Below are positions 688 through 2,215 of a stretch of 64,000 nucleotides of DNA, in pieces. The notes below the pieces were generated by a model. That model was not told where the DNA came from. It did no database searches and worked only from the letters and a program-made list of their open reading frames with translations. Location: the NCBI GenBank assembly GCA_965645245.1, contig OZ287071.1, positions 1,984,001-2,048,000 on the forward strand, given 5' to 3'. The stretch's first letter is position 1; each line of letters starts with the position of its first letter. Source of the DNA: Massalongia carnosa. Its lineage: Eukaryota. Position numbers and translations under genes: made by a program.

Positions 688-1134
688 TTATAACGGAGAC
701 GCCAAAGGCCTCACCGTGGGGCGAACGTCAAATATATTGATTTGCTCCTATCTCTTTGCATCAAAACAATGCTAATTTAACGCGTTTACACGCGTCGCAG
801 ACGTACGTACGGAAGAGGATACGAAGGCCAACCGCCGGGGGTAGAATGCGCGCGTCCCTGCACCATGCTTCTAAGGGTTCAAGTCCCTTTATGCAGTTAT
901 CAGCTGGAAGAAGATGTGGACCAAAGGAGCCGCATCATCCCCCACCCGGGCACAGTCGACACGCGTTCTAGCTCCTGAGAGTTCAAGTCTACCCATGCAG
1001 TCATCAGCTGGGATCAACAGATCGCGTAAAGGCACCGGGGCAAATGCTGTCACCTCAAGAAAACTCCATCTCGGAGCAGAATAAAAATATCCCATTTAAT
1101 AGGACCGGCCTGTTAAATAAATCGTGGAAAACAG

Positions 1135-1265
1135 AGAGTCACAAAACACATTGTCATCAATTATACGTTGTACAAAGTACACAGTTACAAAGCACACAGT
1201 CACAAAGCACATAGTCACAAATATACAGTCATAAAACACACAGTAACAAAAAATACAGTCACAAA
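1135..1265. repeat. Degenerate ACACAGTCACAAA minisatellite inside element X
   Basis: Repeated CACAGTCACA units; variable copy number at 11335-11497 and 28265-28380. Confidence 0.85.
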
Positions 1266-2215
1266 TCAATAACACGTCCCTGTGAAGGGGGTTCTGCGGG
1301 GGCTCGTTAAGACAGATCTGCACCCCGTTAATATCGGAATACATATTTTTAGAGGTTCAAGTCCTATTTAGCAGTCATTAGCTGAAAATAATGTATTTTG
1401 ACTCGAGCATGGTTTGGATTTCACTCGGGTAGACCTCGATGGATCACAAAACGAATGAAAAGAGTTCAGCTGAACTTCGTTAATATTGTTCTCGAAGACC
1501 TCGTTAATAAGATTTTCATAGACCTCGTTAACAACGTTCGGTCCTACTATTAAAGGTTCAATTCCTTTCATGCAGTTATCGGCTGAGAGCTAAAGAAGTA
1601 CGACACGGGTCAGCTATTTCTATCTCACGGGTCTCCTTCGTCTACAACACGGAGCCCTCCGGCTGAAAGAAATAAAACATATGGACACATAGAGTAGGGT
1701 CACACCCTACACGATACAAGAGATTTAGGTTATGAAAACTATCCGATTAATGGCTACCGTGAGCAACACGGCCCGAACCGGAGTCGTACCGGGGATGGTG
1801 GAGGCAACCTAGTCATTAAATAGGACACCCTTGGGACAAGAAGAGGGCAATATACGAGGAACCCGTTAATTGATAACAGTCTAGGCCCTGAGCTAATAGA
1901 CGAATTTCAAACGAGCACCCCTCCGAGTTGTCTTCGACTCCTTTTGTGCGCATGTCGGTGTATATAGAGCAGGAAATGTCTATCTCGCTCGTAACGAGAC
2001 CCCGTCGGTTCGCCGGCGCATGGGCTACGGCTAGACTCGCCCTTGATATATGCTTAAGGAGTAAATTGGGTTCGACTTGGGCAAAAGGGACGTCGTTTAC
2101 CCCGATCGTAGAATTCATCAACAGTCTTGGGCCGTAAAACGCACCAGTAAGATGAACAAAAACTGGGATAGAGACTTCACAAAGGAGATGTCAAATCTAT
2201 TTTATCACTCTTAGT

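Follow-up and report, generated by a model that had tools for sequence, protein, structure and literature searches.

The closest described counterparts of the element reported here are chimeras in which a noncoding RNA precedes a 5′-truncated long interspersed nuclear element (LINE), known from Magnaporthe (MINE) and from mammals (U6-L1) (PMC2104539). According to the part of that report available to us, the MINE of Magnaporthe grisea carries WEIRD, a 1.1-kb expressed noncoding RNA that is always of full length, on the 5′ side of an MGL LINE truncated at 28 different sites, with direct repeats of 10 to 20 bp; WEIRD was reported there to lack solo copies, similar sequences in other genomes, and a known function. 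The same report proposes template switching by the LINE reverse transcriptase (RT), as for mammalian U6-L1, with a site motif of GCC*A/U and no microhomology (PMC2104539). Our analysis concerns a 64,000-nucleotide (nt) stretch of the Massalongia carnosa genome (contig OZ287071.1, positions 1,984,001 to 2,048,000), the whole of which is referred to as the window. An original prediction, made from its letters alone, described four 43-nt T-loop motifs in each copy of a repeat, X, and missed the chimeric retroelements to which these copies belong. We found that X is a 1.7- to 2-kb noncoding head, composed of several structured domains, that is fused to variably 5′-truncated LINE bodies, and that the motifs, here called units, form a three-way RNA junction containing a T-loop arm.

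The window holds three copies of the head, all on the plus strand. Head copy A1 (534 to 2218) is joined at 2215 to 2337 to a LINE fragment that corresponds to LINE positions 7070 to 7192. Chimeric retroelement B (10837 to 16552) consists of a head at 10837 to 12640 and a LINE body at 12637 to 16552 that runs from the equivalent of position 6713 to the A-rich tail, and chimeric element E (27596 to 31689) consists of a head at 27596 to 29525 and a LINE body at 29522 to 31689 that starts at the equivalent of position 7646 and is cut off on its 3′ side by other DNA. Element B entered an older LINE copy as a whole and is flanked by a target site duplication (TSD) of 12 nt with one mismatch, GATKATTCGAAA, the left copy of which (GATTATTCGAAA, plus strand, 10825 to 10836) is matched by the right copy (GATGATTCGAAA, plus strand, 16553 to 16564). 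The uninterrupted target is present in two other LINE copies, at 8900 to 8911 and 14828 to 14839. Since this TSD surrounds the head together with the truncated LINE, both were integrated in a single retrotransposition event, and a site-specific insertion of the LINE into a resident head is ruled out for this element. The TSD is readable in this one of the three window copies, the other two being interrupted.

The element downstream of the head is a non-long terminal repeat (non-LTR) retrotransposon, as its long open reading frames (ORFs) matched apurinic/apyrimidinic endonuclease (APE), RT, and RNase H domains in Pfam. A full-length LINE without a head occupies positions 4519 to 10617 of the plus strand and comprises a short 5′ region of its own (4519 to 4745), an ORF1 candidate (4746 to 6017), the APE domain (6307 to 7590), the RT-RNase H region, and an (AATA)n/A tail. 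The ORF1 candidate encodes 423 amino acids without a Pfam match and was assigned by its position and by a public contig in which a head is joined at about codon 56; fragments related to ORF1 also lie on the minus strand at 18294 to 19502. An (AATA)n/A-rich LINE 3′ end occurs six times in the window. The 3′ untranslated region (UTR) of the LINE ends in a conserved AACCTTAGGTTGAATACACTTAAT followed by the A-rich tail (10590 to 10617, 16505 to 16552, 18230 to 18257, 27090 to 27118, and 38785 to 38813). This conserved segment contains CCTTAGG, similar to the YCTTRG at the end of the heads, a likeness that may be due to chance.

All three heads in the window terminate at the identical base, …TATTTTATCAYTCTTAG, while the LINE resumes at the equivalents of positions 7070 (A1), 6713 (B), and 7646 (E), which lie within or beyond the APE domain. 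Contigs from four public runs were also compared and contained two further junctions at the same head end, one of them inside LINE ORF1 at about position 4915. The LINE has a distinct 5′ end of its own near position 4519, common to two other partial copies. The scatter of the junctions over ORF1, the APE domain and its downstream side, and more distal parts of ORF2, together with this separate 5′ end, became apparent in a self-comparison at higher sensitivity and shows that the head is not the native 5′ UTR of the LINE. An origin of the junctions by splicing was also rejected, as the LINE sites in the window are preceded by A or T and not by AG.

The same architecture was found in a second, independent family, represented by 29 metagenomic loci from one set of large contigs, in which the units are spaced 183 nt apart and the head end could be read in 26 loci. 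These heads are homologous up to a fixed end, …ATATCTATCCTTRG (ATCTATCCTTRG), which reads …CCTTRG, or …CCTTAA in one locus, and which is complete in 26 of 26 loci. The 26 loci contain 16 distinct junctions, two of which are common to five and four loci, respectively. A longer LINE copy could be compared at 12 junctions, and at every one of them the sequence after the head matches an internal part of the LINE, which in its intact form extends upstream of the junction. The intact LINE has a G, mostly as AG, immediately before the site, so that head and LINE overlap by 1 to 2 nt (a single G, AG, or GG), and the first base of the LINE part is usually C; in the window family, this part begins with CC at the junctions at 2218, 12640, and 29525. 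Four of the 12 readable sites of the second family are preceded by dinucleotides other than AG (CG at one, TG at two, and GG at one), which again speaks against splicing. Addition of CCA to the head 3′ end was rejected for this family because the intact LINE already has the C residues found after the head end. In this family, the 5′ ends of the heads form a single cluster; six heads are truncated further in and none of the six ends at a unit, in a sample that is biased in that the presence of units was required.

From 5′ to 3′, head A1 is made up of 23-nt repeats, ACGCGT motifs, the four units, a 15-nt array, a structured module, and a structured tail that ends in …TCTTAG. A motif search of the window for the 14-mer GCAGTCATCRGCTG with up to two mismatches returned 12 occurrences, exclusively on the plus strand, with a chance expectation of 0.38 per window; 12 were not reached in any of 100 shuffles. 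The 14-mers start at 893, 997, 1371, and 1572 in copy A1, at 11095, 11199, 11603, and 11804 in copy B, and at 28022, 28126, 28484, and 28685 in copy E. At a constant distance 5′ of each 14-mer lies TTCAAGT, and both flanks carry complementary tetramers, termed P1 (CTTC/GAAG, TCC/GGA, TTTT/AAAA, and CTCT/AGAG). A covariance model built from 48 units (R1) found exactly these 12 units in the window and nothing else, so the four motifs per copy are present where the original prediction had placed them. The units of copy A1 are the most mutated of the three copies: unit 1 (868 to 910; P1 CTTC/GAAG; 62.1 bits with R1), unit 2 (972 to 1014; P1 TCC/GGA, one T-stem mismatch; 59.2 bits), unit 3 (1346 to 1388; P1 TTTT/AAAA, lengthened by ACATA/TGT; 60.1 bits), and unit 4 (1547 to 1589; P1 CTAT/AGAG, mutant loop TTCAATT; 49.8 bits). 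Units 1 to 4 lie at 11070 to 11112 (66.4 bits), 11174 to 11216 (63.8 bits), 11578 to 11620 (54 bits), and 11779 to 11821 (69.5 bits) in copy B and at 27997 to 28039 (67.6 bits), 28101 to 28143 (64.2 bits), 28459 to 28501 (63.8 bits), and 28660 to 28702 (63.5 bits) in copy E, all on the plus strand.

Relatives were sought in metagenome contigs with the pattern TTCAAGT-N8-GCAGTYATYRGCTG, which matched 61 loci; with the same pattern, viral contigs gave no hit and 596 Gb of prokaryote genomes gave three single ones. With R1, 178 hits of at least 30 bits were obtained in the window and in 59 of the 61 metagenome loci. The five remaining pattern hits (two metagenomic and three prokaryotic) scored at most 20.5 bits or were unscored, and lacked complementary flanks. 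Such low scores without stems indicate that the 59 loci are true relatives and that the chance level of the pattern is a handful of hits. All units of a locus lie on one strand (61 of 61 loci), and similarity to LINE proteins (E value up to 1e-6) was detected in 22 of the 61 loci, where every one of 50 high-scoring segment pairs lay downstream of the last unit and on the same strand. The LINE similarity in these 22 loci starts at positions between the beginning of the APE domain and the end of the RT. Identity between the attached RTs and the RT of the window is only 24 to 34%, and the last 700 nt of the window head are 67 to 77% identical to most loci; Ascomycota were the commonest assignment among some of the nearest RT clusters. 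The new structured RNA motif marks a family of head RNAs that hitchhike on LINEs and that are probably widespread.

The structure of the unit was examined in 48 units aligned without gaps, which had been selected from 106 distinct units by de-replication at 88% identity, after the chance hits L026 and L044 had been excluded from 50 representatives. The unit is a three-way junction in which a T-loop arm and a 4-bp/5-nt hairpin (CAGU-CAUCA-GCUG) adjoining the 3′ strand of P1 (P1′) are closed by P1. In order, it comprises P1 (4 nt), one U, a 5-bp T-arm with a UUCAAGU loop, three pyrimidine-rich nt, GCAGUCAUCAGCUG, and P1′, and the single U between P1 and the T-arm is present in 104 of the 106 distinct units. 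The strands that connect the helices are almost empty (1 nt, 3 to 4 nt, and 0 nt). This arrangement upholds the order of elements given in the original prediction; its 3-bp second stem was too short, as the T-arm stem has 5 bp and the predicted TRR pairs with YY. We scored P1 (4 bp), the T-arm (5 bp), and the hairpin stem P3 (CAGU/GCUG, 4 bp). Standard pairs occupied 92.9% of the 624 cells, compared with 81.6% in 500 shuffles, none of which reached the observed value, and sliding the 3′ partners by one to three columns lowered pairing to 40 to 58%. The covariation score was 0.52 versus 0.285. Changes on both sides were found at all four P1 pairs and all five T-arm pairs, in agreement with the predicted covarying stems, and included transversion-type swaps such as G-C or A-U to U-A (columns 14/26, 5 rows). 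Support for P3 is limited to two changes from C-G to G-C in a single locus, two from U·G to U-A, and two from U·G to C-G, and two of its pairs never vary. In many relatives, P1 lengthens to 10 to 14 bp with bulges. The minimum free energy (MFE) fold recovered the three-way junction in three of the eight units folded.

The stems also reveal on which strand the structure acts. In P1 and the T-arm of the 48 nonredundant units, 45 G·U pairs stood against 18 A·C or C·A combinations, and two subsets drawn from the 106 distinct units gave ratios of G·U to A·C of 63:25 and 8:2, which bears out the bias of G-U pairs toward the plus strand that had been noticed from the window alone. Substitutions among copies of this stretch in a public run were nearly symmetric (A>G 21 and C>T 12 versus G>A 20 and T>C 18), so that the G·U excess is not explained by a mutation bias. 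Collectively, the covarying P1 and T-arm and the excess of G·U on the plus strand demonstrate an RNA structure of the sense strand.

These data bear directly on the suggestion that the units act as DNA, either as promoter monomers with a B-box (bound by TFIIIC) and an E-box-like element or as an insulator that keeps the head transcribed at its landing sites. A head that lands at random needs an internal promoter, the CAGCTG in each unit is palindromic, and the units sit within repeated monomers of about 116 to 183 nt with recurring ACGCGT, CGTTAA, and ACACGGG, comparable to the promoter monomers of mouse L1 and to clusters of TFIIIC boundary sites. The segment GGTTCAAGTCC also resembles the B-box consensus. 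However, its flanking GG/CC positions are free to vary with the stem while pairing is kept, and DNA binding does not need stem complementarity, yet all nine P1 and T-arm pairs covary and the slid controls fail. The asymmetry of G·U over A·C points to one transcribed strand, ARAGORN called no tRNA, and reading of the flanks, without a formal search, revealed no A-box-like sequence 5′ of the units. A role as DNA is therefore quite improbable, and the original prediction of a B-box cluster acting as a chromatin boundary is disfavored, since it leaves both the covarying stems and the invariant 14-mer unexplained. Of the dual identity proposed there, the T-arm holds, whereas the B-box remains a resemblance to the consensus.

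The T-arm itself is canonical, with a 5-bp stem, a 7-nt loop, and, in 42 of 48 rows, a closing G-C pair; six of the seven columns of the loop, UUCAAGU, show no variation, although the search pattern fixed those letters. Together with the single U before the arm, these are the features that the unit shares with tRNA. It differs from tRNA in having no cloverleaf and in the order of its arms, as the T-arm directly follows the 5′ strand of P1 and an extra hairpin lies on its 3′ side. Of the acceptor, D, anticodon, and T arms expected of a tRNA gene or a tRNA-derived head of a short interspersed nuclear element (SINE), the T-arm alone is present. The units could in principle be functionless relics, that is, decayed 3′ halves of tRNAs or remnants of a tRNA-derived SINE head, given that a perfect T-arm is followed by a 7-nt stretch at the position of the acceptor strand. 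Against this origin stand the compensatory changes in the stems and the retention of two to four units per head although the partner LINEs share only 24 to 34% RT identity, and we found no D-arm or anticodon arm. The possibility, raised at the outset, of a match to a known tRNA-derived SINE head found no support either, as ARAGORN detected 0 tRNA genes in the window and Rfam gave no tRNA hit, either at gathering thresholds or at E values up to 10. We consider decayed tRNA relics highly improbable.

A search of the whole window against Rfam 15 at gathering thresholds matched no family, and relaxed searches (E value up to 10) of positions 700 to 1750 and 1590 to 2300 returned only two weak matches to small nucleolar RNAs (E values of 3 to 5), both outside the units. 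Together with the covariation and the strand bias, this result is in line with the unnamed structured RNA module that had been put forward as one reading of the motif. The covariance model from a larger alignment that had been recommended as a check is R1, and covariation is present in the alignment behind it. Neither the 14-mer nor its complement, in DNA or RNA letters, was found in the searchable literature, which did not cover supplements or non-open papers, and within the same coverage the literature on tRNA-like or T-loop motifs in retrotransposons and on fungal template-switching chimeras described no such motif.

Each unit might also belong to a novel class of self-cleaving ribozymes or be a hammerhead read from the minus strand. 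The unit is a three-way junction with conserved loops that occurs in tandem arrays in a retroelement, a typical habitat of ribozymes, and it shares with the hammerhead this junction and, in the complement of the 14-mer, the motif CUGAUGA. It differs from the hammerhead in that the core is incomplete and wrongly spaced: on the minus strand, 7 nt separate CUGAUGA from the hairpin, so that helix II does not adjoin it, and GAAA is missing in three of the four unit types. Moreover, the G·U bias favors the opposite, plus strand, the almost empty junction strands leave little room for a catalytic core, the ribozymes of Rfam were not matched even at E values up to 10, and mobilized copies retain the sequence on either side of every unit. 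Self-cleavage on either strand is thus very unlikely.

The surroundings of the three-way junction appear to extend the fold. Contrary to the unrelated spacers of the original prediction, the spacers contain a recurring YYCGTTAA upstream and ACACGGG downstream that are able to pair, and most units have one or two copies of the former and an equal number of the latter. Two outer 5-bp helices (CYYGU/ACRGG) likely extend P1 into a rod of 150 to 180 nt. Outside the large family, these outer helices, designated P0, were paired in 22 of 24 monomers, and the middle pair of CYYGU/ACRGG was C-G in 15, U-A in 7, and C·A in 2 monomers; in 20 monomers of the large, decayed family, the counts were 12, 2, 3, and 3, that is, combinations closer to independence. 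A nested rod with the junction at its tip was obtained in the MFE folds of five of nine whole monomers. We rate this extension as likely rather than shown because both changes are products of CpG decay. By eye, the conserved upstream TACTGG formed no consistent helix with the 14-mer.

Besides the units, the head contains two further domains with compensatory changes. The structured module, about 160 nt long (plus strand, 11915 to 12080 in B and 1690 to 1855 in A1), is organized by a long-range helix, UUAAUGGCUA/UAGUCAUUAA, around two hairpins; it is kept in nine further loci (L061, L021, L046, L047, L034, L032, L037, L055, and L011), and 21 of its 44 predicted pairs show compensatory change in 11 sequences. 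The structured tail, about 190 nt long (plus strand, 12453 to 12640, 2027 to 2218, and 29334 to 29525), shows compensatory change at 20 of 33 predicted pairs in 12 sequences. It holds the invariant blocks GCUUAAGGAGUAAAC and GGAAAC, and its final approximately 20 nt are unpaired up to the 3′ end, …UAUUUUAUCAUUCUUAG; an ending in …YUURG is common to the families. Neither domain matched Rfam in the search of 1590 to 2300 at E values up to 10. The extreme 5′ end of each head is formed by a 23-nt tandem repeat, ATCGGTCCTCCTCCTTCTACACC, at 534 to 676 (6.2 copies), 10849 to 10892 (about 2 copies), and 27596 to 27828 (10.1 copies), with other copy numbers in public contigs. A tandem array of 15-nt repeats (ACAAAGCACACAGTC-like) is located in the spacer between units 2 and 3, at 1172 to 1265 (6.3 copies), 11331 to 11497 (11.2 copies), and 28267 to 28379 (7.6 copies). 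The head has T-runs, and clusters of ACGCGT, which resembles the MluI box, lie upstream of the first units (775 to 815, 845 to 852, and 960 to 968) and also upstream of units in L016, L029, L040, and L046; these motifs could be promoter elements of the head.

Taken together, these observations make it very probable that the units are a selected RNA structure of the sense strand within a MINE-like head. As to how the chimeras arise, we infer that the LINE RT, when partway along the LINE RNA, may switch template to the 3′ end of the head RNA at an overlap of 1 to 2 nt. Chimeras that keep the LINE 3′ end could then be mobilized again as a whole, which would account for the shared junctions, and the head would supply transcription to the chimera. 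The repeated T-loop junctions might serve as protein handles that mimic the tRNA elbow and recruit the head RNA to, or retain it at, the LINE ribonucleoprotein (RNP) or its translating ribosome, making it a preferred acceptor; in this respect, their role would parallel that of the tRNA- and 7SL-derived heads of SINEs. We favor such access to the LINE because the motif goes with LINE-fused heads, occurs several times in each head, and mimics the tRNA elbow, which is read by proteins and the ribosome. The overall account, in which folded T-loop domains of a MINE-like head provide handles to the LINE machinery, is the best explanation we can offer and stands at about an even chance of being correct, while the handle role of the T-loop junctions taken by itself is a tentative proposal that we would sooner doubt than accept.

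The same fold and strand evidence would equally suit units that act as signals in RNA metabolism, namely, as substrates or decoys of tRNA enzymes (RNase P/Z; Pus4-, Trm2-, and Trm6/61-type enzymes; La; export factors), as blocks to exonucleases, or as elements of nuclear retention or stability. The T-arm consensus agrees with this idea (5-bp stem, UUCAAGU, closing G-C pair in 42 of 48 rows), GUUCAAGUC agrees with the T-loop motif recognized by tRNA-modifying and -processing enzymes, and tandem redundancy is typical of stability elements. Retrotransposed copies, however, keep all the units and the sequence upstream of them, so their templates were not cut at the units, and a role in RNA metabolism leaves unexplained why the units are tied to LINE-fused heads in 22 of 22 loci with a recognizable LINE protein. 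We regard signals of this kind as unlikely, though less so than a role as DNA.

Several points weigh against our interpretation of the units. The LINE itself carries no unit according to the search of the window with R1, and the units lie at least 630 nt from the head 3′ end, the site of the proposed switch. The stability of single units is unremarkable, with z-scores from −1.4 to +1.7. P3 carries four C·A mismatches in the 48 rows. The invariance of the loop and of the 14-mer arises partly by construction, as the loci were found with a pattern that fixed them, while the stems were left free. The P1 types CTTC/GAAG and CTCT/AGAG recur between families, so many of the covarying cells represent a few old differences between paralogue types. 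In the outer helices, the covariation of CYYGU/ACRGG consists of CpG-to-TpG/CpA changes on both sides, to which shared CpG decay could contribute.

A broader and still more conjectural generalization, which we consider rather unlikely as a whole, is that the heads form a widespread and probably fungal class of selfish leader RNAs with a high degree of structure, which would parasitize LINEs from the 5′ side and capture the RT or RNP through their T-loop junctions, in the way that the CR4/5 junction of telomerase RNA holds TERT or that tRNA-like heads serve SINEs. The RT would subsequently jump to the 3′ end of the head, so that dead, truncated LINEs would gain a promoter-bearing head, and WEIRD would be a member sharing that function. 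If the heads are one family, they would constitute a new structured RNA family, and R1 would provide a searchable signature for neglected nonautonomous retroelements. The nature of WEIRD and the preference in template switching could then be tested by mutating the 43-nt module, and annotation would improve, as such regions are otherwise read as long LINE 5′ UTRs or tRNA-like relics.

The window is almost wholly derived from transposons. A 156-nt inverted repeat of 92% identity (3495 to 3650 and 4355 to 4509) surrounds a minus-strand ORF (3641 to 4342) without a Pfam match; it may represent a small DNA transposon insertion 5′ of the full-length LINE. Two copia-type LTR retrotransposons lie on the minus strand at 19507 to 25862 and about 50404 to 57327; in the first, 235 nt are repeated with 100% identity at 19507 to 19741 and 25628 to 25862, and we read these two copies as its LTRs. 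Both elements carry a 72-nt tandem array (24814 to 25193 and 56207 to 56658). According to Pfam, a DUF6589 gene, a DEAD/helicase-C ORF, and pol fragments of the gypsy type lie within the segments at 33614 to 37209, 39734 to 42515, 58772 to 61468, and 61824 to 63293. A fungal host is probable, to judge from the DUF6589 gene and the copia- and gypsy-type retroelements, from the prominence of Ascomycota in some of the nearest RT clusters, and from the lichen metagenome label of one of the public runs that contain this sequence; no RNA run was among the 16 runs listed.

Several known RNAs invite comparison with the unit and the head. SINEs with tRNA- or 7SL-derived heads combine a structured 5′ module with a LINE-derived 3′ end and are mobilized by LINE proteins. 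The present element shares with them a structured 5′ module that resembles a host RNA and is joined to a LINE-derived 3′ part; it differs in that its head is 1.7 to 2 kb long and contains T-runs, and in that the LINE-derived part is kilobases long and varies between copies. The CR4/5 and P6.1 region of telomerase RNA likewise has a three-helix junction with a conserved 4-bp/5-nt arm, which there is bound by an RT related to those of LINEs (PMC4993307). The geometry is alike, the sequences are not, and CCCTAA/TTAGGG was found in no head copy; as no template-like repeat was detected, an origin of the heads from telomerase RNA was rejected, and we treat the CR4/5 likeness, an analogy of shape, as a lead only.

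Mammalian U6-L1 chimeras share with our element a complete RNA on the 5′ side of a variably truncated LINE and a TSD, and template switching was proposed for them as well (PMC2104539). The small RNA U6, however, comes from a host gene whose function is known and of which a solo master copy exists, while the present head is far longer, is known in fused form only, and looks like a selfish element.

By its architecture, the element appears to work like MINE; this likeness concerns the design of the two elements. Two published WEIRD primers (PMC3978060) had no match at up to four mismatches, which says little at such a distance. The hallmarks of MINE recur in the window: the head is complete at its 3′ end, the LINE follows in the same orientation and is cut at variable sites, and a TSD is present, in one of the three window copies. 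Judged by the MINE report (PMC2104539), both systems have a noncoding head of about 1 to 2 kb with a complete 3′ end, followed by a LINE in the same orientation that is cut at many internal sites; in both, the whole chimera lies between TSDs of 10 to 20 bp, several copies can share one junction (here five loci of the large metagenome family), and no solo head was seen, in our case among the window copies and the loci examined. The site rule of WEIRD, GCC*A/U in the same source, differs from the C or CC with which the LINE part starts here, at an overlap of 1 to 2 nt. Finally, WEIRD was reported there without relatives or structure, whereas the head described here, although of MINE design, has relatives at 59 loci, three domains supported by covariation, and, as its hallmark, a T-loop junction that is absent from Rfam.

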